Under the pieces are notes generated by a model that saw only the letters and a program-made list of their open reading frames with translations, did no database searches and was not told where the DNA came from. A stretch of DNA of 44,728 nucleotides, from the sequence record MZ997840.1, one strand, 5' to 3'. The stretch comes from Escherichia phage ULINTec6. The position numbers and the translations under genes are program-made. Shown in pieces: positions 1,576 through 44,114 of the stretch (the first letter of the stretch is position 1; every line of letters starts with the position of its first letter).

Positions 1576-1905
1576 ATGGAACGCAATGCTAACGCTTACT
1601 ACAATCTTCTGGCTGCAACTGTTGAAGCATTCAACGAGCGCATCAAGTACGATGAGATTCGTGAAGACGATGATTACTCTGATGCACTGCATGAGGTTGT
1701 AGATAGCATGGTGCCAGTTTATTACAGCGAAATCTTTACTGTGATGGCTGCGGATGGTATTGATGTTGATTTTGAAGATGCTGGTTTGATTCCTGATACG
1801 AAGGATGTAACCAAGATTCTACAAGCTCGCATCTATGAAGCTCTTTATAATGATGTACCAAATGACAGCGATGTAGTTTGGTATGAAGGCGAAGAAGAGG
1901 AATAA
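1576..1905 (+). CDS. ocr: Ocr-like anti-restriction protein (T7 gene 0.3 homologue, DNA mimic)
   Basis: 109-aa highly acidic protein; blocks IKYDEIRED, VPVYYSEIFTVMAADGID, FEDAGLIPDTKDV and ILQARIYE closely match T7 Ocr as I recall it; acidic C-terminus. Confidence 0.8.
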   Translation: MERNANAYYNLLAATVEAFNERIKYDEIREDDDYSDALHEVVDSMVPVYYSEIFTVMAADGIDVDFEDAGLIPDTKDVTKILQARIYEALYNDVPNDSDVVWYEGEEEE

Positions 1906-6403: not shown

Positions 6404-7557
6404 ATGGCTATTATTAATAACATCCCATGTCCTCAATGTCAGAAGAATGGACACGATAAATCAGGCAACCACCTTATGATATTCGAGGATGGTGCTGGGT
6501 ACTGTAACCGTGGTCACTTCCATGATAATGGCAGACCTTACTACCATAAGCCTGAAGGGGGCATCGAGATAACCGAGTTGCCTATTACTGGCAATATCAA
6601 ATATACACCTTCCCAGTTTAAAGAGATGGAGAAGGAAGGGAAGATTAGCGACCCTAAGCTACGCGCCATCGCACTTGGTGGTATGCGTATGAAAGACCGT
6701 TGGGAGGTTATGAATGAGCAAGAAAGGGCAGACCAAGAAACAGAGTGGAAACTTGATGTTGAATGGTTCCTCACGCTTAAGCGTAAGAATCTTGTTTCCC
6801 GACACATTCGCGGCGACATTTGCGCATTGTATGATGTACGGGTCGGACACGATGAAGAAGGTAGAGTCTCACGGCATTACTATCCACGCTTCGAAAAAGG
6901 TGAGCTAGTAGGCGCTAAGTGTCGCACATTACCTAAAGACTTTAAGTTTGGTCATTTAGGTAAACTATTTGGTATGCAAGATCTTTTCGGTATGAATACT
7001 TTGTCTCACGTGTTAGACAAGGGAAGACGAAAGGATTGCTTGCTTATTGTCGGCGGCGAACTGGATGCACTAGCAGCACAGCAAATGCTCCTTGATTCTG
7101 CCAAGGGTACTAAGTGGGAAGGCCAGCCTTACCATGTATGGTCTGTCAATAAAGGTGAGTCTTGCCTTGAAGAGATAGTACAGAACCGTGAACACATCGC
7201 CCAATTTAAGAAGATTATATGGGGTTTTGATGGAGATGAGGTAGGGCAGAAGCAGAATCAGCAAGCGGCTCGCCTGTTTCCTGGCAAATCCTATATCCTT
7301 GAGTACCCTTCTGGTTGCAAAGATGCCAACAAGGCATTGATGGCTGGCAAGGCTAAAGAGTTTGTTGATGCATGGTTTAATGCCAAGTCATCTGATGAAG
7401 TCTTTGGTAGCCAGATTAAATCTATCGCATCTCAAAGGGATAAGCTCAAGGCTGCACGTCCAGAGCAAGGACTATCATGGCCTTGGCCTAAGCTGAACAA
7501 GGTAACGCTAGGTATTCGTAAGAACCAACTTATCATTGTAGGCGCAGGCTCTGGCGT
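6404..7557 (+). CDS. Primase-helicase (T7 gene 4 family), exon 1: zinc-ribbon, TOPRIM primase and start of the helicase P-loop (GAGSGV)
   Basis: IPCPQCQKNGHDKSGNHL...YCNRGHFH zinc ribbon and LLIVGGELDALA / FDGDEVGQ / CKDANKALM TOPRIM motifs match T7 gp4; the reading frame hits a stop 7 codons after GAGSGV. Confidence 0.85.
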
Positions 7558-8344
7558 TAACATTAGCGCCGCCATGTAGTAATACATGGGCAATAATCGT
7601 GTGAACTCAGGGGAAGACTAGAACAGTTAATCCTGAGCCAAGCTAGGCACACCTCAAATTCAAAGGAGGTGTTATGCAATTTAAAGAAGTACCAGATCAC
7701 AGTAATTATATTTGTTATGAGAATGGCACGGTTGTTAATCGTAAGACTGGAAAGGTCTTGAAAGAAGATACAACTAACCGAGGTTATAAGCGGATTACAG
7801 TAAGCAAGGGCAACAAGGTAACACGTTGGAGTGTGCACCGTTTAGTTGCTTTACTGTTTATCCCTAACCCTCATAATTATGAAACTGTTAATCACATATC
7901 GGGAGATAAGACGGATAACTCTGTTAGTAATCTTGAGTGGATGAGCCAAGAACAGAACCAAGCCCATGCTAAATATACAGGACTGTGTCCTAAAGGTGAG
8001 GCTGTTGGCACTAATAAGTTCAAAGAGGCAACTATTCAGCAAGTGTGCAAGCTAATAGAGAAAGGTTTATCTCGCGGTGAAATTATGAAAGCAACGAGCA
8101 TCTCTAAAGCAACCTTTGATGACATTCGTAGAAGGAAGACTTGGAAGCACGTATCTTGTTCATATAAATGGTGACAATCTGGTGTGCCTAGAAGGTGCAA
8201 CGACTATCCCGAAAGGGAGTACAGCCAAGCGGCTGGAAGCGCACGACACCCATCGTGGGTGATGATATAGTCTGGTCTATATGGGGACATATAGCAGTTC
8301 ATAAGAGAACGGGCGTGGCTTAGCGAACCACGTCGAACATAACG
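7558..8344 (+). mobile_element. Putative self-splicing group I intron (787 nt) interrupting the helicase Walker A motif, with an HNH homing endonuclease ORF in the P6 loop
   Basis: Exon end GGCGU 7553-7557 pairs with GCGCC 7566-7570 (P1, U-G at splice site); P-like CTCAGG 7606-7611 pairs with Q-like AATCCTGAG 7629-7637; R-like GTGCAACGACTATC 8195-8208 and S-like GATGATATAGTCTGG 8261-8275 form P7 (GACTA/TAGTC); intron ends with G 8344; splicing restores GAGSGVGKTEF. Confidence 0.75.
7674..8174 (+). CDS. Intron-encoded HNH homing endonuclease (166 aa)
   Basis: HNH motif VHRLVALLFIPNP...VNHISGDKTDNSVSNLEWMSQEQN; own RBS AAAGGAGGTG; C-terminal helix-turn-helix-like region. Confidence 0.85.
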   Translation: MQFKEVPDHSNYICYENGTVVNRKTGKVLKEDTTNRGYKRITVSKGNKVTRWSVHRLVALLFIPNPHNYETVNHISGDKTDNSVSNLEWMSQEQNQAHAKYTGLCPKGEAVGTNKFKEATIQQVCKLIEKGLSRGEIMKATSISKATFDDIRRRKTWKHVSCSYKW

Positions 8345-9170
8345 AGGTAAGACTGAGTTCCTCCGCGAAGTGGTTAAACACCTCATTGAAGAGCACGGTG
8401 AATCTGTAGGCATCATTTCTACAGAAGACCCGATGGTCAAGGTGTCCCGTGCTTTTATCGGTAAGTGGATTGATAAGCGCATTGAGTTACCGCCAACCAA
8501 TGACCCGAAAGAAGACGGATACCGTGAGGTGTTCGACTACACCGAGGAAGAAGCTAACGCTGCCATTGATTATGTGGCTGATACAGGAAAGCTATTTGTG
8601 GCCGACCTAGAAGGCGACTATTCTATGGAGAAGGTAGAGCAAACTTGCCTAGAGTTTGAGGCTATGGGCATTTCTAATATCATCATTGATAACTTAACGG
8701 GGATTAAATTAGATGAGCGTGCTTTTGGTGGGAAGGTTGGTGCACTTGATGAATGCGTCAAACGAATTGGTACTATCAAAGACCGACATGCGGTTACGAT
8801 TTTCCTTGTCTCTCACCTTACACGTCCTCCGGCAAACCGTACCCAACACGAAGAAGGTGGCGAAGTTATCCTTTCTGACTTCCGAGGCTCAGGCGCTATC
8901 GGATTCTGGGCATCTTACGCCTTGGGGATTGAGCGTAATACAAGAGCTGAAACGCTTGATGAAAGGACTACCACGTACATCTCGTGTGTCAAAGACCGCG
9001 ATCAAGGTGTGTGGACTGGCACTAAAGTGAAACTTAAAGGGGATATGACCACAGGTAGGTTATTGGAATGGGAAGATCGTGTTTCTAGATTTGACACAGG
9101 TATACCTAAGGAGCAAAGTGTACCTGATGAAAACACAGGAGAGTTGAATGAAGAAACTTCAGAGTTTTGA
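8345..9170 (+). CDS. Primase-helicase exon 2: remainder of the helicase domain, beginning (A)GKTEFLREV...
   Basis: In-frame upstream extension of the 8370 ORF reads GKTEFLREVVKHL, the second half of the Walker A motif; DnaB-family blocks LVSHLTRP and ILSDFRGSGAIGF match T7 gp4 helicase; no canonical start codon of its own. Confidence 0.8.
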
Positions 9171-9639
9171 GGAAGCAGGATATGTCGTCAAGGAAGACGG
9201 CACGATCTTAAACCCAAAGGGTTTAGTCAGAAAACCATCCTTCGCAGGTAAGAATGTTAAATACTATGTAGTATCTTGGAGGGATAAACATTCTAAGAAA
9301 ACAATCATAGATTTAGTTCACAGATTGGTTGCTAAGAAGTACATACCTAATCCACATGGTTTACCAGAAGTTCATCATAAAGACTTTAATCCTCTTAATT
9401 GTCATAAGGATAATTTGGAATGGACAGATGGGAAAACCAATTGTGAGTATAGTTATTCCAGGGTAGAGGCTGCGCTTGCACGAAGTGCTACCTTACTCTC
9501 ACCTGATGGGGTTAAGCATGAGGTATTTAATGTTCGTAAGTTCTGCCGTGAACATAGCCTCAATCCACCTAGCATATTTGAAGTGCTTAGTGGTAAGCGT
9601 AAATCACACAAAGGATGGACTATTTACCGGACACTATAG
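9148..9639 (+). CDS. Free-standing HNH homing endonuclease (163 aa)
   Basis: HNH motif VHRLVAKKYIPNP...VHHKDFNPLNCHKDNLEW; GGAGAG RBS; overlaps the helicase stop; the last codons are encoded by the phage promoter at 9622-9644. Confidence 0.8.
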   Translation: MKKLQSFEEAGYVVKEDGTILNPKGLVRKPSFAGKNVKYYVVSWRDKHSKKTIIDLVHRLVAKKYIPNPHGLPEVHHKDFNPLNCHKDNLEWTDGKTNCEYSYSRVEAALARSATLLSPDGVKHEVFNVRKFCREHSLNPPSIFEVLSGKRKSHKGWTIYRTL

Positions 9640-11205: not shown

Positions 11206-11410
11206 ATTAAGCAAGGTTTGCTCTTGCGGTAAAGGCTATCGCAGTCGTATTGATGGTAAGTGTGGACATTGTAGGTCTAAGAAAGAGGCTGCTTTGTTTG
11301 ACAAGTACCACAATGAATTAGCCTATAACCACCCACATCTAACACCTAATTCTTTATTAGGACTTGGTTATAGGGCTAAATACTTTGGAGCAATCTATGA
11401 AATCAATTGA
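11192..11410 (+). CDS. Small Cys-rich (zinc-ribbon-like) protein
   Basis: CSCGKGYRSRIDGKCGHC motif; in-frame ATG 11192 with GAGG RBS preferred over the track start at 11165. Confidence 0.45.
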   Translation: MKTIKLSKVCSCGKGYRSRIDGKCGHCRSKKEAALFDKYHNELAYNHPHLTPNSLLGLGYRAKYFGAIYEIN

Positions 11411-13943
11411 TTGGAAGAAGGAAGCAGAAGGCCGTATTCTAGTGATGGATGCGGAAGCTAAAGGCCTCCTTGATGCTATCCGATATGGACACCGCGAAGA
11501 TGTGCATATCATTTGCTGTATGGACTTGCTTACTACCGAGGAGTTCCTCTTCTTCGACCCATATGAGATGCGTGACCCTGAAGCAAGAGAGCGTCTCAAG
11601 GAGTGGGAAGGACACCAAGACGGTGATTTGGTTGACGGTGTTAACTTTCTGAAGTACTGTGAAGCTATTGTGTCACAGAACTTCCTAGGGTACGATGGGC
11701 TTCTCTTTGAGAAAGCATTCCCTGACATCTGGAAGGGCTTTAACTACACCGAGAGGCGCGGCAAGGGCAGACTACGTGCTGACCTGTGCCCTGTTCGAGT
11801 CATGGATACGCTGGTCATGAGTCGCCTATTAAACCCCGATAGACGCCTTCCTCCGCAAGCATATGCCAAAGGTATGGGTAACGTCGCCCCTCACTCAATT
11901 GAGGCGCACGGCATCCGTATAGGCCGCTATAAACCGGAGAACGAGGACTGGTCTAAACTAACTGACCACATGGTTCACCGTGTACGTGAGGACGTGGCGA
12001 TTGGTCGTGACTTGTTCCTCTGGCTCTTTAACGGGGAATGGATGGAGCACAAACGCCGTGGCGTGAATAAACGCACTGGCCTAGGCATTGAGACAGCCTT
12101 CCACATGGAGTCCATTGTGGCGCTGGAGATGAGCCGTCAGGCAGAGCGTGGATTCCGTCTGGATATTGACAAAGCACTAGCGCGATGCGAAGAACTGGAC
12201 GCTAAGATTGATGAGACAGTCGCAGCGTTCCGCCCTCACATGCCTATGCGTATCAAGTCTAAACCTTTTAAACCGGAAGAAAAGAATGAAGTATGCCAAC
12301 GCGCAAATGAGTATGGAGCTAGCAACAATATACCTACTGTCCTTGACCCCTCACACTTTCTTCATGCCGAGAGACGAGGAGATCGCAAGACAGTATGGAG
12401 TGTCACTACTAAGTCTGGTGATTGGTCGGCTAGTGTCAAGAAAGACTTTCCTCACCTTAGAGGAAACCGTAATGACACGCCAAGTATCAAGTGGATTGGC
12501 GCTTACTCGCCTGTTACTTTCGAAGAGATTCCCTTGGGTAACAGGGATACAGTTAAGCAAGTGCTCTATGATTATGGGTGGAAAGGTGTTGAATTTAACG
12601 ATACCGAGCAAGCGCATCTGGATGAGTATGGAGTGTTACCCAAACCTTGGAGTGGGAAGATAAATGAAAAGTCCCTTACTTTATGGCAAGAGAGAGCCGC
12701 ACGTGAAGGTAAAACAGTCCCTGATTGGTGCTTGGGTATCGCTGCATGGTACATACTCGTATCCCGTCGTGGTACGATCCTTAACCGTGGTGACGTTGAA
12801 GCCTTCGACCAGAAGGGGGTGTGGCCTTCGCAAGCTGGTGTACGAAAGTGTCGCGGCCTTGTACCTGTAGCATTTAACAAGGAGTTAGGAATCAATGCGC
12901 AGCAATACTATGAGAGGTATGGGTGTTGGCCTACGTCTGACAAGGATGACGGGGAGTGGCGTGTTCCAGCTATTGCTATTAGTATTGGTACTTCTACGTT
13001 CCGTATGCGTCATCGTAACGTGGTTAATATTCCTGCCCGTGGTTTGTATCCTTTACGTGATTTATTCATAGCAGGTAAAGGTAAGCTAATCCTTGGTTGT
13101 GATGGCGCTGGTCTTGAACTACGTGTACTATCTCACTTCATGAATGACCCTGAGTATCAAGATATTGTACTGCATGGTGATATACATACTCATAACCAGA
13201 TGAAGGCTGGTCTTCCCAAGCGTGACATGGCGAAGACATTTATATATGCCTTCCTATATGGGTCTGGTATAGCTAACCTTGCAGCAGTATGCGGTGTTAC
13301 TGAGGAAGAAATGAAGGAAGTTGTGGCAAGATTTGAGATTGAACTACCATCTCTTGCACGTCTTCGTGAGAATGTTATCGCACAAGGTAACAAGTTTGGC
13401 TATCTACAAGCACCTGATGGGCATTGGGGTCGCATCCGTATGTCTGGTGGTGAACTTAAAGAGCACACTATGCTTAACGTATTGCTCCAGATGACTGGCT
13501 CTCTGTGTATGAAATACGCATTGGTCAGAGCGTTTGCGGTGATGCGCAAGGAAGGTGTGGCTCTAGATAGTATGGGAAACCCTTGCGGTGTGGCTAACGT
13601 GCACGATGAAATCCAAATGGAAGTTCCTGAAGATGAGGTCTTGTATCTCAACTATGACTTGCCTTTCACCTTAGAAGGGTTCGAAACAGAGAAGGCTGCT
13701 GTGAAAGCAGTGTTCGATGCAGAGGAGAAACGTGTTCATGTTGATTCCGAAGGGCGCATGTGGTCTGCTGCAAATCTCATTAGCGTTGATGCTGATGCTG
13801 GTGTACTTCATTGCCAGCGTCGTTATCACCGTGCAGGACATATCATTGCCGATGCAATGACTTGGGCTGGTTATTATTTGAAGATGCGTTGTCCGATGGC
13901 AGGTGAGTATAAGATTGGTGCAAGCTGGAAGGAAACACACTGA
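11397..13943 (+). CDS. DNA polymerase (family A, T7 gene 5-like) with 3'-5' exonuclease domain
   Basis: Motif B-like RDMAKTFIYAFLYGSG, motif C-like VHDEIQMEV, N-terminal exonuclease motif LVMDAEAKGL; start set to ATG 11397 after GGAG RBS. Confidence 0.93.
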   Translation: MKSIDWKKEAEGRILVMDAEAKGLLDAIRYGHREDVHIICCMDLLTTEEFLFFDPYEMRDPEARERLKEWEGHQDGDLVDGVNFLKYCEAIVSQNFLGYDGLLFEKAFPDIWKGFNYTERRGKGRLRADLCPVRVMDTLVMSRLLNPDRRLPPQAYAKGMGNVAPHSIEAHGIRIGRYKPENEDWSKLTDHMVHRVREDVAIGRDLFLWLFNGEWMEHKRRGVNKRTGLGIETAFHMESIVALEMSRQAERGFRLDIDKALARCEELDAKIDETVAAFRPHMPMRIKSKPFKPEEKNEVCQRANEYGASNNIPTVLDPSHFLHAERRGDRKTVWSVTTKSGDWSASVKKDFPHLRGNRNDTPSIKWIGAYSPVTFEEIPLGNRDTVKQVLYDYGWKGVEFNDTEQAHLDEYGVLPKPWSGKINEKSLTLWQERAAREGKTVPDWCLGIAAWYILVSRRGTILNRGDVEAFDQKGVWPSQAGVRKCRGLVPVAFNKELGINAQQYYERYGCWPTSDKDDGEWRVPAIAISIGTSTFRMRHRNVVNIPARGLYPLRDLFIAGKGKLILGCDGAGLELRVLSHFMNDPEYQDIVLHGDIHTHNQMKAGLPKRDMAKTFIYAFLYGSGIANLAAVCGVTEEEMKEVVARFEIELPSLARLRENVIAQGNKFGYLQAPDGHWGRIRMSGGELKEHTMLNVLLQMTGSLCMKYALVRAFAVMRKEGVALDSMGNPCGVANVHDEIQMEVPEDEVLYLNYDLPFTLEGFETEKAAVKAVFDAEEKRVHVDSEGRMWSAANLISVDADAGVLHCQRRYHRAGHIIADAMTWAGYYLKMRCPMAGEYKIGASWKETH

Positions 13944-16229: not shown

Positions 16230-16252
16230 ATTTACTGGACACTATAGAAGAG
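16230..16252 (+). promoter_or_regulatory. Phage RNAP promoter (ATTTACTGGACACTATAGAAGAG)
   Basis: Full consensus match. Confidence 0.8.
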
Positions 16253-16791: not shown

Positions 16792-17097
16792 ATGCCGACT
16801 ATTAGATCTCGTTTAGTAGCAGACTATGTTTATGGTCGTGACTTAAAGTTAATGCAAGATTATTTTAAAGTAATTATCTTGCTGGATGGAGAGGTATTTC
16901 ACACTAAAACATTCACCCTACCTGAGTTGTTTGATTTAGGTTATTGGGGTTATACTTATCAGGCCATAGCAGACAAGGTGCTACTCAGTGTGTTAGAGGA
17001 GTGGCCTACATGCGACCAAACTTCGACTTCGGAGCTACAGTATCGGAAGACAATAATCTCATCCTGTGGCCAACTGAAGGTAATAGAATCGCTTTAA
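16792..17097 (+). CDS. Hypothetical protein (101 aa) overlapping the exonuclease start
   Basis: ORF track; GGAGA RBS; the 88-nt out-of-frame overlap with the next gene lowers confidence. Confidence 0.3.
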   Translation: MPTIRSRLVADYVYGRDLKLMQDYFKVIILLDGEVFHTKTFTLPELFDLGYWGYTYQAIADKVLLSVLEEWPTCDQTSTSELQYRKTIISSCGQLKVIESL

Positions 17098-18038
17098 TAG
17101 ATGCTGATATGTTACCTTACATCGTCGGGTACACTATCAGTGACATGACTTATGTGCGAGCCACAACTCGTGTTAAGTCGGGACAAGTCCCATCGATCAA
17201 AGATACACCTGAGTGTAAGCAAGCATGTGACCGTGTGAACTCCTTGCTTAACTCTTGGGTGTATGCAGCAGAGTGTGATGCAGCTAAGCTATTCATGACG
17301 AAATCAGAAGCTAACTTCCGTGTTCGCCTCGCCTTCACCAAGCCTTATAAGGGTCAACGTAAGACCGAGAAGCCTCCATTCTTCTATGAATTGCGAGAGC
17401 ATCTCTTAGAGGTTCACGGTGCAATCTTGGCAGATGGAGAGGAAGCAGACGACCTCATGAGTATCGCACAATGGGACAGCCACCGCCGCTTCCAGCAAGA
17501 TACAGGTAACGAGTTCCCTATCGGTAGTCCAGAGCATAAGGCATTCTCTGACACTTGCATCGTTTCCTTGGATAAGGATTTGATGATTGTCCCCGGTTGG
17601 CACCTACAGCCGGGTCAAGAGAAGAAGTGGGTAGAGCCTATGGGTTGGCTTGAGTTACGCCGCAAAGCTAATGGTCAAGTCAAAGACCTAAAAGGTGCTG
17701 GCCTCATGTTCCATTATGCACAGATGATTATTGGTGATGACATTGATAACTATGCTGGCATACCTAGTCGTGGTGCTAAGTACGCCTATGACCTTCTCAA
17801 AGACTGTAAGACAGAGAAAGAATTGTACATGGCAGTGCTTGGCGCTTACAAGGCTAAGTTCGGACATGGACAAGTTAAGATTAAGAATTACCGAGGTGGT
17901 TATCGTATCGGCAAAGCCTTTGACCTAATGCTTGAATGCGGTCGTCTTGCTCATATGGCAAGGTTCAAAGGGGATATATGGCGAGCCGATAAGAACCCAA
18001 TCTTGTGGGGAGATGATGCGGAATGGTTAGCAAATTAA
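17010..18038 (+). CDS. 5'-3' exonuclease (T7 gene 6 / FEN-like)
   Basis: Blocks ALIDADMLPY, EADD, SLDKDL and IIGDDIDNYAGIP parallel T7 gp6 (ILVMDGDWLVF, EGDD, SCDKDF, IKGDITDGYSGIA); start set to ATG 17010 after GAGGAG RBS. Confidence 0.85.
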   Translation: MRPNFDFGATVSEDNNLILWPTEGNRIALIDADMLPYIVGYTISDMTYVRATTRVKSGQVPSIKDTPECKQACDRVNSLLNSWVYAAECDAAKLFMTKSEANFRVRLAFTKPYKGQRKTEKPPFFYELREHLLEVHGAILADGEEADDLMSIAQWDSHRRFQQDTGNEFPIGSPEHKAFSDTCIVSLDKDLMIVPGWHLQPGQEKKWVEPMGWLELRRKANGQVKDLKGAGLMFHYAQMIIGDDIDNYAGIPSRGAKYAYDLLKDCKTEKELYMAVLGAYKAKFGHGQVKIKNYRGGYRIGKAFDLMLECGRLAHMARFKGDIWRADKNPILWGDDAEWLAN

Positions 18039-18436
18039 AAGCATCGGAGGTGGCAGCTTATAAGAAGGAATTGCTAGATAAGCAAGGATGGAAATGCCCT
18101 CTGTGTGGCGGCAGTCTCAAAGCTGTCACACCTGTAAACCGTGTACTTGACCATGACCATGAGACAGGATTCTGCCGTGCTGTTGTATGCCGAGGCTGCA
18201 ATGGTGCGGAAGGGAAGATTAAGGGTGTTATCTCTGGTTATGGCAAGGCGGGTAATAATCGTTACTTCCAGCTTCAATGGTTAGAGAGATTGTATGAATA
18301 CTGGAAGTTACATAGTACGCCTCAGACAGATAAGTTATATCACAAACATCAAACGGAGGCAGAGAAGCGCGAGGCTAAGAACCGTAAGGCACGCCTTGCT
18401 TATGCAAGAAAGAAGAAGGAGGTTAAAGTTGGGTAA
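18023..18436 (+). CDS. Endonuclease VII-type Holliday-junction resolvase
   Basis: CPLCGG...DHDHETGFCRAVVCRGCNGAEG zinc-binding/catalytic pattern typical of T4 endonuclease VII-family proteins. Confidence 0.75.
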   Translation: MVSKLKASEVAAYKKELLDKQGWKCPLCGGSLKAVTPVNRVLDHDHETGFCRAVVCRGCNGAEGKIKGVISGYGKAGNNRYFQLQWLERLYEYWKLHSTPQTDKLYHKHQTEAEKREAKNRKARLAYARKKKEVKVG

Positions 18437-19436
18437 GCTTCGCAGCTTGTACAAAGACTCCGAGGTACTTGATGCAATCGAGCAAGCTACCGACGAGAAA
18501 GGTAATGTTAACTACAATGAGATGGCACGTGTATTATCGTGTCATCCTGTGGGTAAGAAGATTACCCGCCAGTTGGCTAGATACTGGCATGGTCAATTCA
18601 AGAAGACCAAGAAGAATGGAGAGTACTACCAGACTCTTCTGCAAGAAGATAAGCGTATCAAAGAAGAGCGTAAGCTCAGGACTCCTGACCGCTACGAGGA
18701 TTTGGCTATTGTACCATTGCCTGACTCGCCTCATCGAAGTGTACTGGTAATACCTGACACTCATGCACCTTACGAACACCCAGATACCTTAGAGTTTCTG
18801 GCAGCGGTGGCAGCACGTTACCGTCCAGACACTGTAGTTCATCTGGGTGATGAGGCGGATAAACATGCCTTATCATTCCACGATTCGGACCCCAATCTGG
18901 ATAGCGCTGGCATGGAGTTAGAGAAGGCCCGTGTCTTTATGCATAAATTACACAAGATGTTTCCTGTGATGCGCCTGTGTCATTCTAATCACGGCTCTAT
19001 GCACTTCCGTAAGGCAAGCGCCAAAGGTATTCCTGTACAATATCTGCGTACCTATCGTGAAGTCTTCTTCCCGCAGGGAGGTGGAGATCAGTGGGATTGG
19101 CAGCATACTCATGTGCTTGAGTTGCCGAACGGTGAACAGGTGGCATTCAAGCATCAACCTGCTGGCTCTGTCTTAGCAGATGCAGCGCATGAGCGTATGA
19201 ACCTGGTGTGTGGTCACTTGCACGGTAAGATGTCTGTGGAGTACGCACGTAATACACATGAACAGTATTGGGCTGTGCAGGGTGGCTGCTTAATTGATGA
19301 GTCATCCCGTGCATTTGCCTATGGGCGTGAGTCTAAATACAAGCCAGCATTAGGTTGTGTGGTTATTCTGGAAGGTGTGCCTCATATTGTCCCGATGCAA
19401 ACCAATAGCGACAACCGTTGGATTGGCAAGATTTAG
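18429..19436 (+). CDS. Calcineurin-like metallophosphoesterase
   Basis: Motifs VIPDTHAPY (DxH), HLGDEADKH (GDxxD), CHSNHG (GNH-like) and GHLHG; start uncertain (TTG 18429 after AAGGAGG, or in-frame ATG near 18518). Confidence 0.65.
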   Translation: MGKLRSLYKDSEVLDAIEQATDEKGNVNYNEMARVLSCHPVGKKITRQLARYWHGQFKKTKKNGEYYQTLLQEDKRIKEERKLRTPDRYEDLAIVPLPDSPHRSVLVIPDTHAPYEHPDTLEFLAAVAARYRPDTVVHLGDEADKHALSFHDSDPNLDSAGMELEKARVFMHKLHKMFPVMRLCHSNHGSMHFRKASAKGIPVQYLRTYREVFFPQGGGDQWDWQHTHVLELPNGEQVAFKHQPAGSVLADAAHERMNLVCGHLHGKMSVEYARNTHEQYWAVQGGCLIDESSRAFAYGRESKYKPALGCVVILEGVPHIVPMQTNSDNRWIGKI

Positions 19437-19453
19437 TTGACACTATAGAACAA
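19431..19453 (+). promoter_or_regulatory. Phage RNAP promoter (ATTTAGTTGACACTATAGAACAA)
   Basis: Close to the classical SP6 promoter form; followed by a 9-bp inverted repeat (aagggctag ... ctagccctt) in the leader. Confidence 0.75.
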
Positions 19454-19536: not shown

Positions 19537-20040
19537 ATGTCACACTATGAATGTAAGAAGTGTCATAAGCGTTATGATTACTGTACTTGTGGTCAAGAGA
19601 AAACATCTTTTAAAGTTGGAGACAAGGTATTTCGTAATGAAAAAGATTCTATTCCTTGGAATCAATACTGCAAAGAAGCTGGTATTGACCCTGATAGCCC
19701 TGTAACCATAGATGATATTGATGGCATTAACTTGTGCTTTCGTGAGGTGAGGGGTACAGGTTGGGATTCCAAAAAATTCAAACTTGCATCTGATAAGTTA
19801 GACAACAATATGGTAACTCAGCCTAAGCACTACGAGTTCTTTGATGGTGTAGAGGCAATCACTATCATTGCCCGCAGTATGACTGAAAAGCAATTCGCTG
19901 GGTACTGCATGGGTAATGCCCTTAAGTATCGCCTGCGTGCAGGTAAGAAGTTCAATACTGAAGAAGACTTGAAGAAGGCAGACTATTATAAAGAGTTATT
20001 CCAGAAGCATCGTCACGAATGTATTGATGAGGATATTTAA
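19537..20040 (+). CDS. Hypothetical protein with N-terminal Cys cluster (CKKCHKRYDYCTCG)
   Basis: ORF track, start adjusted to ATG 19537 after GGAGGG RBS. Confidence 0.55.
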   Translation: MSHYECKKCHKRYDYCTCGQEKTSFKVGDKVFRNEKDSIPWNQYCKEAGIDPDSPVTIDDIDGINLCFREVRGTGWDSKKFKLASDKLDNNMVTQPKHYEFFDGVEAITIIARSMTEKQFAGYCMGNALKYRLRAGKKFNTEEDLKKADYYKELFQKHRHECIDEDI

Positions 20041-20041
20041 T

Positions 20042-20215
20042 ATGGAAGGTAAACTGTATAGAGGGTACTTCGGTAACTTATATAAAGTAAGCTCTCGCGG
20101 TTTTGTATTGACCTCTGATGATGAAGGTGCAATGTGGCACCTAAGTGCATATGGTTCTAACTTAGCACACTTTAAAGAGGCAATAGTCAAAGGTGTGATG
20201 AAGGAGGTGAAATGA
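20042..20215 (+). CDS. Hypothetical protein (57 aa)
   Basis: In-frame ATG within the track ORF 20024..20215; overlaps neighbours at both ends. Confidence 0.4.
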   Translation: MEGKLYRGYFGNLYKVSSRGFVLTSDDEGAMWHLSAYGSNLAHFKEAIVKGVMKEVK

Positions 20216-21159
20216 ACATCTTCCAATTCCTAGGTCTTCCAGAAGACCACCGCAATCATCCATTCATGCTGGTGAAGCATCGCGGTGAAGTTCCTGAGAA
20301 GAAACTTACTTTTCCATGTTATGCACAGGTGAAACGAGATGGAATATTCAGTGCTGTTGTGGTGCGCAATGATGGTGCTGTTGCCGTCTTTGGTCGTACT
20401 GGTAAGAAGCTCTCAAATGTTGAAGCCTTGGAAAAGACATTTAGTGTATTTCCTGTCGGGTTGTATCTTGGTGAGTTGCAATCTATGGCTGTTGATGTTT
20501 ATCTTGAAGCTCTGTCAGGAGTGGTAAACCCTAATCGTACAGAGCCACTTGACTTCATAGGCCAGCAGATTAAAGACAACCTGTATATCGACTTCTTCGA
20601 TATGTTAACTATTAAGGCATTCCATGATGGATTCACTGATGTTTCTTATCTCAAACGTTACGATGCTTTACATCGTCGTATCGGCACTCATCTTAGCGGG
20701 TGCAACGCTATCCTTCCTATCACTCCTTGCCATAATGAGCGAGAAGTTGAAGCGTTTGCGCAAGAGCAAATAGATGCAGGACGTGAGGGTGCTGTATTCA
20801 AACTGGACTGCGATTATGAAGCAGGACACAAAGGTTATCGTCAGACTAAAGAAGTCCGTAAGGTAACTTATGACCTTACTTGTATTGGCTTTGAAGAAGG
20901 TAAAGGTAAATACAAAGGTAAGGTAGCTAACCTCATTTTCAAGTGGAAAGGGGGCAAGACAATCAAAGCTATGCTCGGTAAAGGGTGGACTCATGCAGAT
21001 GCAGAACAGATGTTCCACGATATTAAACATGGCGGACGGTTGAATGTCATTGGTAAAATCTTTGAAGTCAAAGGTCTTCAGGATTCAAGCAAGGGCAACA
21101 TTCGTCTGCCCAAAGCGGGAGAATTAAGACATGACAAAGATGAACCAGATTTCTTTTGA
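20212..21159 (+). CDS. ATP-dependent DNA ligase
   Basis: Adenylation motif I AQVKRDGIF (KxDG); size similar to T7 ligase; GGAGGTG RBS. Confidence 0.85.
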   Translation: MNIFQFLGLPEDHRNHPFMLVKHRGEVPEKKLTFPCYAQVKRDGIFSAVVVRNDGAVAVFGRTGKKLSNVEALEKTFSVFPVGLYLGELQSMAVDVYLEALSGVVNPNRTEPLDFIGQQIKDNLYIDFFDMLTIKAFHDGFTDVSYLKRYDALHRRIGTHLSGCNAILPITPCHNEREVEAFAQEQIDAGREGAVFKLDCDYEAGHKGYRQTKEVRKVTYDLTCIGFEEGKGKYKGKVANLIFKWKGGKTIKAMLGKGWTHADAEQMFHDIKHGGRLNVIGKIFEVKGLQDSSKGNIRLPKAGELRHDKDEPDFF

Positions 21160-21346: not shown

Positions 21347-21475
21347 AGGAATGGAGATGCTTGAGATGATTCTCAAGCCTTCTTCTCCGAAGGTGACTAA
21401 GACTCATGAAGAGTTAATCGTTGATGAAGTGAAGCGTTACATCATGGATTGTGTCAGAGCACAACTGGTGGTCCA

Positions 21476-21937
21476 ATGATACGTCCAGCTTCCTTCCTAG
21501 ATATTCCTGAGATTATAAACCTTGGGAATAAATATGTGGAAGAGGAAGTCAAGGTAGTGGCCCATCACTCAGCATCATGGAATGCAGAACAAAGCGCACA
21601 TAACCTTTGCGCATCTCTTAGTAGAGAAGATTTATTCCTATGGGTTGCTGTAGATGAAGGGCGGATTGTAGGGTTCCTGTGGGCTGGCTATCACGAGTTG
21701 GCCCCTTGGACACCTGTAAGGGTTGCCTCTGACATTCTCTTTTATATTATACCAGAGAAGCGAGGAACCCTACTTGGTATGCGTCTCATCAAAGCCCTAA
21801 AGCAATGGGCTAGTGATAATGAATGCTCTGAGGTTCGCCTGTCTATCGCCTCTGGTATTAATGAAGAACGTGTCGGACGTATGTATAAGCGACTTGGCTT
21901 TGAACCGTTTGGCACTGTGTACAACCTGAAGTTCTAA
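21476..21937 (+). CDS. GNAT-family N-acetyltransferase
   Basis: Acetyl-CoA-binding-like core RIVGF...IIPEKRGTLLGMRLIKAL...RVGRMYKRLGFEP; start set to ATG 21476. Confidence 0.6.
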   Translation: MIRPASFLDIPEIINLGNKYVEEEVKVVAHHSASWNAEQSAHNLCASLSREDLFLWVAVDEGRIVGFLWAGYHELAPWTPVRVASDILFYIIPEKRGTLLGMRLIKALKQWASDNECSEVRLSIASGINEERVGRMYKRLGFEPFGTVYNLKF

Positions 21938-40242: not shown

Positions 40243-40599
40243 ATGAGGTCGGTGGTGCTTAATAGATACTTCAAGCGACGCGAGTTCGCTTGCCGTTGTG
40301 GATGCGGTACATCCACTGTTGATGCTGAGTTACTACAGGTAATCACAGATGTGCGTGAGCACTTTGGCGCACCTGTAGTTATTACCTCTGGTCATCGCTG
40401 TGCAAAGCACAATGCCAACGTAGGTGGAGCAAAAGGTTCCATGCATCTTACTGGTAAGGCTGCTGACATTAAGGTACAAGGTATTACACCTTACCGTGTA
40501 TGGTCTTACCTAACAGCACGATACCCTAATAGGTATGGTATTGGGTCTTACCCTAACTTCACTCACATTGATGTACGAGATGGGTGTGCACGATGGTAA
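40243..40599 (+). CDS. Peptidase M15-type zinc peptidoglycan hydrolase (putative endolysin)
   Basis: SGHRCAKHN, SMHLTGKAADI and FTHIDVRD motifs typical of M15 D-Ala-D-Ala carboxypeptidase / L-Ala-D-Glu peptidase-like enzymes. Confidence 0.7.
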   Translation: MRSVVLNRYFKRREFACRCGCGTSTVDAELLQVITDVREHFGAPVVITSGHRCAKHNANVGGAKGSMHLTGKAADIKVQGITPYRVWSYLTARYPNRYGIGSYPNFTHIDVRDGCARW

Positions 40600-41678: not shown

Positions 41679-44114
41679 ATGATTCAAAGACTAGGTTCTT
41701 CATTAGTTAAATTCAAGAGTAAAATAGCAGGTGCAATCTGGCGTAACTTGGATGACAAGCTCACAGAGGTTGTGTCGCTTAAAGACTTTGGAGCCAAAGG
41801 CGATGGTAATACAAACGACCAAGATGCAGTAAATGCAGCGATGGCTTCAGGTAAGAGAATTGACGGTGCTGGTGCTACTTACAAAGTATCATCTTTACCT
41901 GATATGGAGCGGTTCTATAATACACGTTTCTTATGGGAACGTTTAGCGGGTCAACCTCTTTACTATGTGAGTAAAGGTTTTATCAATGGTGAACTCTATA
42001 AAATCACGGATAACCCTTATTACAATGCTTGGCCTCAAGACAAGGCGTTTGTATATGATAATGTGATATATGCACCTTACATGGGTAGCGACCGTCACGG
42101 TGTTAGTCGTCTGCATGTATCATGGGTTAAGTCTGGTGACGACGGTCAAACATGGTCTACCCCAGAGTGGTTAACTGATCTGCATCCAGATTACCCTACA
42201 GTGAACTACCATTGTATGAGTATGGGTATATGTCGCAACCGTCTGTTTGCCATGATTGAAACACGTACTTTAGCCAAGAACGCACTAACCAATTGTGCAT
42301 TGTGGGACCGCCCTATGTCTCGTAGTCTGCATCTTACGGGTGGTATCACTAAGGCTGCAAATCAGCGATATGCAACAATACATGTACCAGATCACGGACT
42401 ATTCGTTGGCGATTTTGTTAACTTCTCTAATTCTGCGGTAACAGGTGTATCAGGTGATATGACTGTTGCAACGGTAATAGATAAGGACAACTTCACGGTT
42501 CTTACACCTAACCAGCAGACTTCAGATTTGAATAACGCTGGAAAAAGTTGGCACATGGGTACTTCTTTCCATAAGTCTCCATGGCGTAAGACAGATCTGG
42601 GTCTGATCCCTCGTGTCACAGAGGTGCATAGCTTTGCTACTATTGATAATAATGGCTTTGTTATGGGCTATCATCAAGGTGATGTAGCTCCACGAGAAGT
42701 TGGGCTTTTCTACTTCCCTGATGCTTTCAATAGCCCATCTAATTATGTTCGTCGTCAGATACCATCTGAGTATGAACCAGATGCGTCAGAACCATGCATC
42801 AAGTACTATGACGGTGTATTATACCTTATCACTCGTGGCACTCGTGGTGACAGACTTGGAAGCTCTTTGCATCGTAGTAGAGATATAGGTCAGACTTGGG
42901 AGTCACTAAGATTTCCACATAATGTGCATCATACTACTTTACCGTTTGCTAAGGTAGGAGATGACCTTATTATGTTTGGTTCAGAACGTGCAGAAAACGA
43001 ATGGGAAGCAGGTGCACCAGATGATCGTTACAAGGCATCTTATCCTCGTACCTTCTATGCACGATTGAATGTAAACAAATGGAATGCAGATGATATTGAA
43101 TGGGTTAACATCACAGACCAAATCTATCAGGGTGACATTGTTAACTCCAGTGTAGGGGTAGGTTCTGTTATAGTTAAAGACAGCTACATTTACTATATCT
43201 TTGGTGGTGAAAACCATTTCAACCCAATGACTTATGGTGACAACAAAGATAAAGACCCATTTAAAGGGCACGGACACCCTACTGATATATACTGCTATAA
43301 GATGCAGATTGCAAATGACAATCGTGTATCTCGTAAGTTTACATATGGTGCAACTCCTGGTCAGGCTATACCTACTTTCATGGGTACTGATGGCATCCGA
43401 AATATTCCTGCACCTTTGTATTTCTCAGATGACATTGTTACAGAGGATGCTAAAGTTGGACACTTAACACTTAAAGCAAGCACAAGTGCCAATATACGGT
43501 CTGAAGTGCAGATGGAGGGTGAGTATGGCTTTATTGGCAAGTCTGTTCCAAAGGATAACCAAACAGGTCAACGTTTGATTATTTGTGGTGGCGAAGGTGC
43601 TTCATCTTCTTCAGGTGCACAGATAACTTTGCACGGCTCTAATTCGAGTAATGCTAAGCGTATCACTTATAACGGAAATGAGCACCTATTCCAAGGTGCA
43701 CCAATCATGCCTGCTGTAGATAACCAGTTTGCTGCCGGTGGACCTAGTAACCGATTCACTACCATCTACCTAGGTAGTGACCCTGTTACAACTTCAGATG
43801 CTGACCACAAGTACGGTATCTCTAGTATTAATACCAAGGTGTTAAAGGCTTGGAGTAGGGTTGGTTTTAAACAGTATGGTTTGAATAGTGAAGAAGAGAG
43901 GAACCTTGATAGCATACACTTCGGTGTCTTGGCTCAGGATATTGTAGCTGCTTTTGAAGCTGAAGGATTGGATGCCATTAAGTATGGAATTGTGTCCTTC
44001 GAAGAAGGTAGGTATGGTGTAAGGTATAGTGAAGTTCTAATCCTAGAGGCTGCCTATACTCGCCATCGTCTTGATAAATTAGAGGAGCTGTATGCCACTA
44101 ATAAAATCAGTTAA
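41679..44114 (+). CDS. Tailspike protein with Asp-box (sialidase-like) motifs and C-terminal intramolecular chaperone domain; likely capsule-depolymerising endosialidase
   Basis: 811 aa; Asp boxes SGDDGQTWS and SRDIGQTWES; N-terminal DFGAKGDGNTNDQDAV; C-terminal SDADHKYGISSINTKV...IHFGVLAQDIVAAFEAEG resembles the autocleaving chaperone domain of phage tailspikes/endosialidases. Confidence 0.8.
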   Translation: MIQRLGSSLVKFKSKIAGAIWRNLDDKLTEVVSLKDFGAKGDGNTNDQDAVNAAMASGKRIDGAGATYKVSSLPDMERFYNTRFLWERLAGQPLYYVSKGFINGELYKITDNPYYNAWPQDKAFVYDNVIYAPYMGSDRHGVSRLHVSWVKSGDDGQTWSTPEWLTDLHPDYPTVNYHCMSMGICRNRLFAMIETRTLAKNALTNCALWDRPMSRSLHLTGGITKAANQRYATIHVPDHGLFVGDFVNFSNSAVTGVSGDMTVATVIDKDNFTVLTPNQQTSDLNNAGKSWHMGTSFHKSPWRKTDLGLIPRVTEVHSFATIDNNGFVMGYHQGDVAPREVGLFYFPDAFNSPSNYVRRQIPSEYEPDASEPCIKYYDGVLYLITRGTRGDRLGSSLHRSRDIGQTWESLRFPHNVHHTTLPFAKVGDDLIMFGSERAENEWEAGAPDDRYKASYPRTFYARLNVNKWNADDIEWVNITDQIYQGDIVNSSVGVGSVIVKDSYIYYIFGGENHFNPMTYGDNKDKDPFKGHGHPTDIYCYKMQIANDNRVSRKFTYGATPGQAIPTFMGTDGIRNIPAPLYFSDDIVTEDAKVGHLTLKASTSANIRSEVQMEGEYGFIGKSVPKDNQTGQRLIICGGEGASSSSGAQITLHGSNSSNAKRITYNGNEHLFQGAPIMPAVDNQFAAGGPSNRFTTIYLGSDPVTTSDADHKYGISSINTKVLKAWSRVGFKQYGLNSEEERNLDSIHFGVLAQDIVAAFEAEGLDAIKYGIVSFEEGRYGVRYSEVLILEAAYTRHRLDKLEELYATNKIS

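Follow-up and report, generated by a model that had tools for sequence, protein, structure and literature searches.

Does the metallophosphoesterase (MPE) encoded in the DNA-metabolism region of a K1-capsule phage act on DNA, on a protein or on a nucleotide signal? We addressed this question for the gene at 18429..19436 of Escherichia phage ULINTec6 (MZ997840.1), whose stretch of 44,728 nt is here called the window. The phage is a Vectrevirus, a podophage of the K1-5/K1E/SP6-like type. As a feature the gene is ordinary and already annotated: dozens of public Vectrevirus genomes label it 'metallo-phosphoesterase', and a PHROG is dedicated to it. Our literature search found no functional study of the SP6, K1-5 or KP34 protein.

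Gene and neighbourhood

The MPE open reading frame is real and intact. It runs from a TTG start at 18429 to a stop codon ending at 19436, and its Shine-Dalgarno sequence falls within the 3' end of the endonuclease VII gene. A longer frame from an in-frame ATG at 18294 is unsupported, since the homologues are 335 aa long and begin with MGK or MAK. The surrounding features are as follows:

17010..18038, plus strand: 5'-3' exonuclease, T7 gp6-like (Pfam 5_3_exonuc 21.1 bits, below cut-off; 'exonuclease' in ULINTec4)
18023..18436, plus strand: endonuclease VII (Pfam Endonuclease_7 47.6 bits), whose last 8 nt are shared with the start of the MPE gene
18416..18422, plus strand: Shine-Dalgarno AAGGAGG of the MPE gene, read from the sequence, with a 6-nt spacer to TTG
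18429..19436, plus strand: MPE gene, homologue of K1-5 gp22 (335 aa, TTG start; open reading frame and translation)
19437..19450, plus strand: SP6-type phage RNA-polymerase promoter core TTGACACTATAGAA, first base directly after the MPE stop codon
19537..20040, plus strand: DUF3310/T7 gp1.7-like gene (Pfam DUF3310 88.4 bits; 'nucleotide kinase' in ULINTec4)
20212..21159, plus strand: ATP-dependent DNA ligase (Pfam DNA_ligase_A_M, DNA_ligase_OB_2)

The protein shares 99.4% of its residues (96% of nucleotides) with a 'phosphoesterase' of ULINTec4. Vectrevirus records contain a gene of equal length, likewise placed after endonuclease VII, with 94-96% nucleotide and 98-99% amino-acid identity. PHROG 221 ('metallo-phosphoesterase') matches MPE over its full length (E 3.1e-105; residues 1-334 against profile positions 16-358 of 367), and K1-5 gp22 and the SP6-like, KP34-like and related Autographiviridae orthologues in this PHROG are the same gene with no substantive difference. 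Some GenBank records label the homologues 'protein phosphatase 2A-like', and in record KY435490 (K1E) an apparent frameshift splits the gene.

The SP6-type promoter core has 11 matches, against 0.5 expected by chance. Since the copy listed above starts directly after the MPE stop codon, the MPE gene closes a unit apparently begun at the promoter at 16236. The exonuclease gene lies in the same apparent unit, and the gp1.7-like gene opens the next one. This middle (DNA-metabolism) transcription unit probably supplies MPE along with the 5'-3' exonuclease and endonuclease VII. An earlier note on this DNA had placed the gene between endonuclease VII and DNA ligase. The endonuclease VII gene indeed overlaps it, but the ligase is set apart by the promoter, the DUF3310 gene and a 63-aa open reading frame.

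Nor is a ligase the neighbour of the homologous gene in the regions of phages F19, 11b, Nitrincola phage and Bxb1 that we examined. The homologue of Klebsiella phage F19 follows the DNA polymerase, and that of Flavobacterium phage 11b is upstream of erf. In the Nitrincola phage it has exonuclease, HNH and MazG genes on one side and ribonucleotide reductase genes on the other, while Bxb1 gp47 and D29 gp54 are located between polymerase and primase. In every phage examined, the MPE or gp47 gene lies in a DNA-metabolism context.

Domain architecture, metal-binding motifs and distribution

The AF2 model of MPE (pLDDT 82) and the alignments show two domains, a helical one at the N-terminus and a catalytic core that contains all the motifs:

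18429..18728, plus strand: N-terminal helical domain, aa 1-100 (AF2, pLDDT ~82; alignment)
18729..19433, plus strand: catalytic MPE core, aa 101-335 (PF00149, Foldseek, hhalign to the gp47 family)
18756..18764, plus strand: motif I, D110-T-H112, followed by the family-specific A-P114-Y-x-H117 (alignments)
18846..18866, plus strand: motif II, G140-D-E-A-D144-K-H146 (22-homologue alignment)
18846..18911, plus strand: motif II with the invariant family-specific loop H146...S149, H151, S153, P155, L157, S159-A-G161 (alignment, AF2)
18984..18995, plus strand: motif III, S186-N187-H188-G189, GNH-like with Ser for Gly and Gly for D/E
19152..19154, plus strand: motif IV, H242 (alignments)
19212..19223, plus strand: motif V, G262-H263-L-H265 (alignments)

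The DxH, GDxxD, GNH-like and GHxH motifs that the earlier note had read in this protein are present, and H242 adds motif IV. All five motifs are invariant in 22 homologues (lowest identity 48%) that include the SP6-like, KP34-like and related branches; a loss of metal ligands on proper alignment was looked for, and the ligands are intact. The motif residues are also invariant in a 19-sequence set reaching to ~30% identity, except the D/H pair of motif I and D144. The PF00149 (Metallophos) match is marginal, with 21.5 bits at a cut-off of 21.5 and covering residues 105-189 alone, and several homologues carry precomputed PF00149 matches. In Foldseek, 27 of 27 PDB matches at E<=1e-3 are metallophosphoesterase folds (LpxH, Vps29, GpdQ, YydD-YydB and Mycoplasma phosphatase), and YmdB, polymerase B-subunits and Dbr1 follow with weaker E-values. 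Sequence searches of the PDB with the protein and with the family profile gave nothing significant. Together, Pfam, PHROG 221, the AF2/Foldseek comparison and the invariant motifs bear out the superfamily membership proposed earlier. MPE is predicted to be a catalytically competent two-metal (Mn/Fe/Zn-type) phosphoesterase. In the AF2 model, confidence is low for the loop at residues 143-153.

The N-terminal domain is modelled as three main helices followed by a basic linker, with L36, L49, Y52 and W53 invariant. It is confined to the SP6-like/KP34-like lineage and missing from homologues of ~235 aa; the core occurs alone at about this length in thousands of phage proteins. Pfam, PDB sequence (profile) and Foldseek searches with aa 1-100 returned nothing significant. 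The best Foldseek E-value for this domain alone is 2.8, at which the finding that five of its six top matches are winged-helix DNA-binding proteins is not evidence. Some distant members have an N-terminal HTH domain by Pfam (HTH_24, 28.7 bits; HTH_8, 22 bits).

To analyze the breadth of the family, we used tblastn, which matched MPE in 644 phage records; the protein matches form 3060 50%-identity clusters at E<=1e-3. Given these numbers and the PHROG 221 match (E 3e-105), the motif conservation is far beyond chance. MPE belongs to a large clade nearly restricted to phages. A scan of bacterial genomes with the 22-homologue alignment identified only 4 loci, all on phage-looking MAG contigs, and thus gives no sign that the full-length form resides in cellular genomes. 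MPE had no match in PADLOC. Some homologues contain intein-like insertions within motifs I and II. Pfam finds a LAGLIDADG domain in homologue P0158 only; in P0121 and P0131 it recognises no intein, and the call there comes from the insertion boundaries alone.

Relationship to Bxb1 gp47

The only characterised branch of the MPE clade comprises the proteins Bxb1 gp47, L5-D29 gp54 and A10ZJ24 gp48 of cluster A mycobacteriophages. Profile comparison indicates that the MPE core is specifically homologous to the Bxb1 gp47/D29 gp54 family. With hhalign, the two family profiles align at 98.8% (E 8e-17) over 208 columns, which is the whole core, and the MPE profile aligns with the single sequences of Bxb1 gp47 and D29 gp54 at 97.3% and 97.9%. 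The same profile gave 0.5% for LpxH, 13.6% over 43 columns for SbcD, 49.5% over 81 columns for lambda phosphatase and 0.9% for D29 gp66, which served as controls. Both families have D-T-[H/Q]-x-P-[Y/F] as motif I, GDxxD, NH and GHxH, and both carry G-x-x-V-G-x-L-[IM]-[DN] after motif V. When the two families are aligned, D10, D41 and H175 of A10ZJ24 gp48 align with D110, D141 and H263 of MPE. Both groups are also encoded in the replication module close to an endonuclease VII gene, and both carry inteins or intein-like insertions at conserved motifs (PMC5050341 and the insertions in the MPE homologues).

However, the identity between MPE and gp47 is ~20%. gp47 consists of one 255-aa domain and lacks the N-terminal helical part of MPE, its motif I carries Q at the position of H112, and past motif II its loop reads P-Q-P-S-R-W...G-E-F-E-G where MPE has HALSFHDSDPNLDSAG. 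In view of the extra 100-aa domain, the D-T-H and the different loop, we regard MPE as belonging to a sister clade of gp47 rather than as a member, and at ~20% identity the function of the SP6-like branch may have diverged. For its directionality function gp47 depends on a serine integrase, and none was seen in the window.

The published data on the gp47 family contradict one another. PMC11795197, where it cites Savinov 2012, gives Bxb1 gp47 as required for phage DNA replication, and the same paper reports a limited or weak Mn/Mg-dependent 3' exonuclease activity of gp47, whereas according to PMC12287305 gp47 is without phosphoesterase activity. For A10ZJ24 gp48, phosphodiesterase activity is reported as well as in vitro breakdown of DNA in linear, plasmid and genomic form, and phages deleted for it fail to replicate their DNA in M. 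tuberculosis (PMC12287305). With the D10G substitution gp48 neither acts as a phosphodiesterase nor degrades host DNA, none of the mutant proteins assayed is an active nuclease in vitro, and toxicity is lost in D10G, D41V and H175D alike (PMC12287305). Ghosh 2006 (PMC1470463) reported no DNA binding by gp47, which acts as a recombination directionality factor by protein-protein interaction (PMC1470463).

Since its core is homologous to a family that the literature ties to DNA replication and cleavage (PMC11795197, PMC12287305), we propose that MPE serves the replication-recombination module as a metal-dependent nuclease/phosphodiesterase of DNA, with a probability of roughly 0.5. We infer the DNA substrate, as well as the biological role and the binding partner of the N-terminal domain. 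In the proposed model, MPE would most likely act on DNA as a metal-dependent phosphodiesterase, either endo- or exonuclease. It may trim or open replication and recombination intermediates or aid the breakdown of host DNA, and as a result phage DNA replication could proceed. The aa 1-100 domain would probably anchor MPE on DNA or on a partner in the replisome.

Two further observations count for such a role: intein-like insertions, which have been reported chiefly in conserved enzymes of replication and packaging (PMC5050341), favour a replication function, and the HTH domains of distant members favour DNA. On the other side, the top Foldseek match, LpxH, is a pyrophosphatase and not a nuclease, and no DNA-binding fold matches the N-terminal domain significantly. 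There is also no obvious nuclease gap, since the phage already has a 5'-3' exonuclease, endonuclease VII and probably an exonuclease domain in its polymerase. The earlier note had left the choice open between protein phosphatase, nucleotidase, nuclease and degradation of signals. From this list, homology to the gp47 family favours the nuclease or DNA role and the absence of PPP signatures disfavours the protein phosphatase, while the degradation of signalling nucleotides gained no positive support.

Mre11/SbcD and PolD DP1 nucleases are the models invoked for gp47 (PMC11795197), and MPE has its superfamily and its five-motif two-metal site in common with Mre11/SbcD and archaeal PolD DP1. MPE is not itself a member of the Mre11/SbcD group: E. 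coli SbcD aligned at 13.6% over 43 columns, and Mre11 is outside the top 50 Foldseek matches. Among the 49 annotated features viewed in ULINTec4, which is 96% identical at the MPE gene, there is no gene for a Rad50/SbcC-like ATPase.

It is also conceivable, although doubtful, that MPE is a widespread replication-accessory nuclease of non-T7 Autographiviridae (SP6-like, KP34-like, Phimunavirus and others; the 644 records), functionally equivalent to gp47, needed for replication and docking through its N-terminal domain on DNA or the replisome. The MPE family and gp47 would then form a phage-specific class of two-metal nucleases working without a Rad50/SbcC partner. The family is conserved in >600 sequenced phages, many of which infect Klebsiella, E. 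coli K1, Pectobacterium or Proteus and have been put forward as therapeutic or biocontrol agents. The link to gp47 and gp48 offers a testable hypothesis, a Mn-dependent DNA nuclease for replication or host-DNA breakdown. If this is correct, the gene is probably no dispensable "accessory" slot for payload insertion in phage engineering.

Alternative activities

One alternative is that MPE is a phosphodiesterase of nucleotides or second messengers, which would act on cyclic (oligo)nucleotides or on other nucleotide signals or pools and so blunt host defence or shift the nucleotide supply. Metallophosphoesterases include class III cyclic-nucleotide phosphodiesterases such as CpdA, Rv0805 and GpdQ, the last of which appears at ranks 24-25 of the Foldseek list (E ~1e-4, target TM-score ~0.4), and the best PDB structural match is LpxH, a nucleotide-sugar (UDP-2,3-diacylglucosamine) pyrophosphatase (E 6e-7, target TM-score ~0.5). 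The nucleotide-kinase-type gp1.7-like gene next to MPE and the MazG and ribonucleotide reductase genes beside the Nitrincola phage homologue point in the same direction, as does the reported use of cAMP by D29 gp66, another phage metallophosphoesterase (PMC12287305). However, neither LpxH nor gp66 reached 1% in hhalign, the gene is part of the middle DNA-metabolism unit rather than of the early region that holds ocr, the characterised relatives act on DNA (PMC12287305, PMC11795197), and HTH domains occur in some distant members. We consider this activity unlikely. MPE is no LpxH by hhalign (0.5%) or by motif III, which is SNHG against G-N-R-D in E. coli LpxH; a lipid A enzyme would also have no evident place among phage replication genes. 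MPE could also heal ends, as a 3'-phosphatase or 2',3'-cyclic phosphodiesterase that cleans broken DNA or RNA for the phage ligase much as bacterial Pnkp does with its phosphoesterase domain. In Pnkp of Clostridium thermocellum the phosphatase domain belongs to the calcineurin-type phosphoesterases, an ATP-dependent ligase gene lies ~800 nt downstream of MPE, and the ligase-associated PdeM (TIGR04123) gives a weak local match around motifs I-II. That NCBIfam match scores 19.2 bits, where the cut-off is 150, and extends over 33 residues only, so that MPE is not identified as PdeM, and the helicase and exonuclease partners of the PdeM operon are absent here. A promoter and two genes separate MPE from the ligase, the other regions examined have no adjoining ligase, and no polynucleotide kinase domain was found among the window ORFs scanned, which makes end healing quite unlikely.

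MPE might also proofread in trans for the phage DNA polymerase, as a 3'-5' exonuclease resembling PolD DP1; this was proposed for Bxb1 gp47, for which a weak 3' exonuclease activity is reported (PMC11795197). Among the Foldseek matches at ranks 28-50 are eukaryotic polymerase B-subunits, relatives of DP1, the homologue in F19 follows the DNA polymerase, and a Pfam search of the first 540 aa of the window's polymerase reveals no exonuclease domain. Residues 147-234 of this polymerase nevertheless align with the T7 gp5 exonuclease domain (89-175, E 0.001), and a D-x-E (MDAE) stands near its N-terminus. The polymerase therefore probably proofreads in cis, and we find proofreading by MPE decidedly improbable. 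That MPE is a Ser/Thr/Tyr protein phosphatase like lambda NinI, a phage-encoded metallophosphoesterase of the PPP family, is most improbable of all to us, despite the '2A-like' label in some records and the second-best hhalign value of five comparators (49.5%) for the lambda enzyme. Only motifs I-III, in the N-terminal 81 columns, can be aligned, and motifs IV-V cannot. The PPP signatures are replaced (DTHAP for GDxHG, GDEADKH for GDxVDRG, SNHG for GNHE), which places MPE outside that family, and PDB sequence searches yield no phosphatase. Finally, MPE might be a mainly non-catalytic scaffold or regulator that binds a partner protein, as gp47 does in its protein-protein mode of directionality control (PMC1470463), and the inactive metallophosphoesterase folds Vps29 and polymerase B-subunits are among its structural matches. 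This is very unlikely: every metal ligand is invariant in the SP6-like, KP34-like and related branches, no integrase was seen in the window, and the related records are those of lytic Autographiviridae podophages.

Gene and genomic setting

The 44.7-kb sequence is essentially a complete Vectrevirus genome (Autographiviridae, Molineuxvirinae; K1-5/K1E/SP6 group), with the gene order of the annotated ULINTec4 record. Around the phosphoesterase gene, the DNA is 96% identical to Escherichia phage ULINTec4 and 94% identical to K1-5. Its endosialidase tailspike identifies the phage as specific for the K1 capsule.

Features of the window
1576-1905: ocr DNA mimic gene (109 bits)
9628, 10497, 14236, 15005, 16236, 19437-19450, 24640, 37394, 39499, 41180, + strand: SP6-type promoters
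18429-19436, + strand: metallophosphoesterase gene
21449-21937: GNAT acetyltransferase gene, directly ahead of the portal gene
40243-40599: M15 peptidase endolysin gene
41679-44114: endosialidase tailspike gene (739 bits)

The phosphoesterase ORF begins with a TTG codon at 18429, preceded by AAGGAGG at 18416-18422, and its stop codon ends at 19436, which confirms that the ORF is real and that the earlier note had its limits right. A longer ATG frame from 18294 was rejected as the start, since the homologues are uniformly ~335 aa and begin with MGK or MAK. The protein matches PHROG 221 "metallo-phosphoesterase" end to end (E 3e-105), while Pfam Metallophos covers residues 105-189 and passes only at its threshold (21.5 bits). 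As an annotation the gene is thus already known (K1-5 gp22, PHROG 221).

The + strand has ten SP6-type promoters, where chance alone would give 0.5 matches. The sequence TGGACACTATAGAA is present in seven and CGGACAC/CCGACAC in two; TTGACACTATAGAA occurs only in the promoter directly after the phosphoesterase stop codon (19437-19450). The gene had been placed between endonuclease VII and DNA ligase. The endonuclease VII gene (18023-18436) indeed overlaps the gene start, but the ligase gene follows only after the promoter from 19437 (the base after the stop codon), a DUF3310/T7 gp1.7-like gene and a 63-aa ORF. By promoter positions alone, a unit begins at promoter 16236, includes the genes for the 5'-3' exonuclease and for endonuclease VII, and ends with the phosphoesterase gene. 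The DUF3310 protein (19537-20040) has an N-terminal Cys-rich stretch (CKKCHKRYDYCTC) before its core, and related proteins in GenBank are labelled nucleotide kinase.

Elsewhere the link to ligase is not conserved, whereas the link to DNA metabolism is. The phosphoesterase gene follows the DNA polymerase gene in Klebsiella phage F19 (KP34-like), lies upstream of erf in Flavobacterium phage 11b, and is flanked by exonuclease/HNH/MazG genes and ribonucleotide reductase genes in Nitrincola phage 1M3-16; in Bxb1 and D29 the family gene has polymerase on one side and primase on the other, and endonuclease VII is close by. Tblastn found the gene in 644 phage records, and most of these are Autographiviridae that infect Klebsiella, Escherichia, Pectobacterium, Pseudomonas, Aeromonas, Vibrio or Proteus. 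A bacterial scan with one genome per species returned only four loci, all on metagenome-assembled contigs, one of which is podophage-sized (41.7 kb), and the full-length form therefore appears restricted to phages.

Active site, fold and domain layout

The metallophosphatase motifs read from the sequence in the earlier note are all present: D110-T-H112, G140-D-E-A-D144-K-H146, S186-N-H188-G and G262-H-L-H265. Together with H242, a further metallophosphoesterase motif, they are invariant among 22 homologues (alignment A1, to 48% identity), and G140, D141, N187, H188, H242, H263 and H265 are still invariant among 19 diverse homologues (alignment A3, to ~30% identity). A1 also contains an invariant, family-specific loop after motif II (H146, S149, H151, S153, P155, L157, S159-A-G161), which probably contributes to the substrate site and is the lowest-confidence part of the AlphaFold2 model.

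The model, built on A1, has a mean pLDDT of 82 and a pTM of 0.73. Every PDB structure that Foldseek matched to it significantly has a metallophosphoesterase fold. LpxH ranks first (E 6e-7, target TM-score ~0.5), and after it come Vps29, GpdQ, a YydD-YydB model, YmdB, the B-subunits of eukaryotic polymerases delta/zeta/alpha, and Dbr1. Sequence searches of the PDB, profile included, detected no chain, and the matches in a viral structure library are other uncharacterised phage phosphoesterases.

An exhaustive profile search yielded 3060 clusters (50% identity) at E<=1e-3. Since most of the more distant clusters are ~235-aa proteins that match only query residues ~100-335, the protein has two parts, with residues 101-335 forming a predicted catalytic core that also occurs by itself. 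Residues 1-100 are an N-terminal add-on common to the SP6-like and, in modified form, the KP34-like lineages. A separate model of the add-on shows, with good confidence, a small domain of helices (10-20, 29-37 and 47-55) and, after it, a basic linker; neither structure nor sequence gave a significant match. Very distant members have other N-terminal extensions, some of which are helix-turn-helix domains according to Pfam (HTH_24, 28.7 bits; HTH_8, 22 bits), a result that is suggestive for the family and proves nothing for the window protein.

Motif I (18756-18764) varies in distant members while the other metal ligands are invariant, both in A3 and in an alignment that includes the gp47 family (A6). 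Three such members (P0163, P0212, P0172) have C-x-H, which resembles Dbr1, and two others (P0270, P0220) share D-T-Q with the whole gp47 family. Metal preference or chemistry may differ between branches.

Relation to the gp47 family and possible function

Because a paper on mycobacteriophage inteins (PMC5050341) describes the recombination directionality factor of cluster A as a calcineurin-like phosphoesterase, we compared Bxb1 gp47 and its relatives with the family profile.

Comparison with the A3 profile (hhalign probability, E value, aligned columns)
Bxb1 gp47: 97.3%, 2.5e-11, 196
D29 gp54: 97.9%, 4.9e-13, 213
gp47 family profile (n=15): 98.8%, 8.2e-17, 208 (whole core)
E. coli LpxH: 0.5%, 0.12, 88
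E. coli SbcD: 13.6%, 0.002, 43
lambda NinI phosphatase: 49.5%, 1.7e-4, 81
D29 gp66 (other cluster A phosphoesterase): 0.9%, 0.065, 78

The narrower, SP6-like A1 profile still gave 88.9% with gp47. The relation is remote (~20% identity), yet specific and over the whole domain. Shared peculiarities support it: in either family motif I reads D-T-[H/Q]-x-P-[Y/F], and a few of the short relatives of the window protein have exactly the D-T-Q of gp47; a stretch G-x-x-V-G-x-L-[IM]-[DN] also follows motif V in both. What sets the window protein apart is its extra domain, H for Q in motif I and another post-motif II loop, and it lies outside the gp47 family proper. This core homology is stated in none of the papers searched, and it gives the K1-5 gp22-type gene a testable function.

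Bxb1 gp47 was first identified through its role as directionality factor for a serine integrase, and its homologues in the polymerase-primase interval of phages with other integration systems led to the suggestion that it takes part in replication (PMC1470463). Later work showed that the phage cannot do without gp47 in DNA replication (Savinov et al. 2012, as cited in PMC11795197). In the presence of Mn2+ or Mg2+, the purified protein acts to a limited extent as a 3' exonuclease, and its predicted structure is similar to Mre11 and the PolD DP1 proofreading subunit (PMC11795197). The orthologue A10ZJ24 gp48 is a phosphodiesterase that degrades linear, plasmid and genomic DNA in vitro, is toxic and lowers host genome integrity; without it, A10ZJ24 does not replicate its DNA in M. 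tuberculosis (PMC12287305). In gp48, the D10G substitution removed both the phosphodiesterase activity and the breakdown of host DNA, none of the mutant proteins tested acted as a nuclease in vitro, and toxicity was lost in D10G, D41V and H175D alike (PMC12287305). These residues align with D110, D141 and H263 of the window protein. However, gp47 itself has been reported to be without phosphoesterase activity (PMC12287305), and a 2006 study found no DNA binding by gp47 (PMC1470463).

We then propose that the window protein is an active two-metal phosphodiesterase, probably expressed together with the exonuclease and endonuclease VII. Judging from homologues and context, its substrate would be DNA, in the processing of replication or recombination intermediates or in host-DNA breakdown, and its action would support phage DNA replication, with the N-terminal domain probably serving in targeting. 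We give this reading a probability of about 0.5; what the analysis itself establishes is the gene with its active site, fold, domain layout, homology and context. A phosphodiesterase of small molecules or cyclic nucleotides has generic superfamily support only and seems unlikely. Less likely again is end healing together with the ligase, for which the basis is a sub-threshold PdeM match and a neighbourhood that is not conserved.

Proofreading in trans, as a separate exonuclease, is slightly more doubtful still, and is weakened by the phage polymerase itself. Pfam found no domain in the first 540 residues (11364-12983) of this 859-aa protein even at E<=10; signs that it has a 3'-5' exonuclease domain of divergent type are limited to a weak BLASTP alignment of aa 147-234 with T7 gp5 89-175 (E 0.001), within the T7 gp5 exonuclease domain, and a D-x-E near the N-terminus (aa 29-31). 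A purely non-catalytic role is hard to reconcile with the invariant metal ligands and is improbable, and least probable is a PPP-type protein phosphatase, whose signature motifs the protein lacks.

Interrupted genes in the family and in close relatives

Some homologues contain intein-like insertions of ~300 aa exactly within the catalytic motifs. In P0121 (635 aa) and P0131 (512 aa), motif II is split as GDE|C...N|CD(N/G)H, corresponding to window nt ~18855, after E142. In P0158 (595 aa), the insertion follows motif I as DLH|C...N|CPYHH (nt ~18765, after H112) and contains a LAGLIDADG_3 domain (30 bits). The viral structure library also holds a 637-aa Proteus phage homologue. The same insertion pattern has been published for mycobacteriophage gp47-type proteins (PMC5050341).

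In K1E record KY435490 (1501-2507), the phosphoesterase is annotated as two CDS of 237 aa and 104 aa, which indicates a frameshift ahead of motifs IV-V, either a sequencing error or a sign of possible gene loss in the laboratory.

The window primase/helicase is split into a Toprim ORF (6404-7579) and a DnaB_C ORF (8370-9170), with an HNH_3 + HTH_7 homing-endonuclease ORF (7674-8174) in between; another HNH-like ORF (9148-9639) comes after the DnaB_C ORF. ULINTec4 has its primase/helicase in one intact piece (663 aa), but endonuclease genes interrupt its DNA polymerase, whereas the polymerase of the window (11364-13943) is intact. Homing endonucleases are inserted in different replication genes of close relatives.
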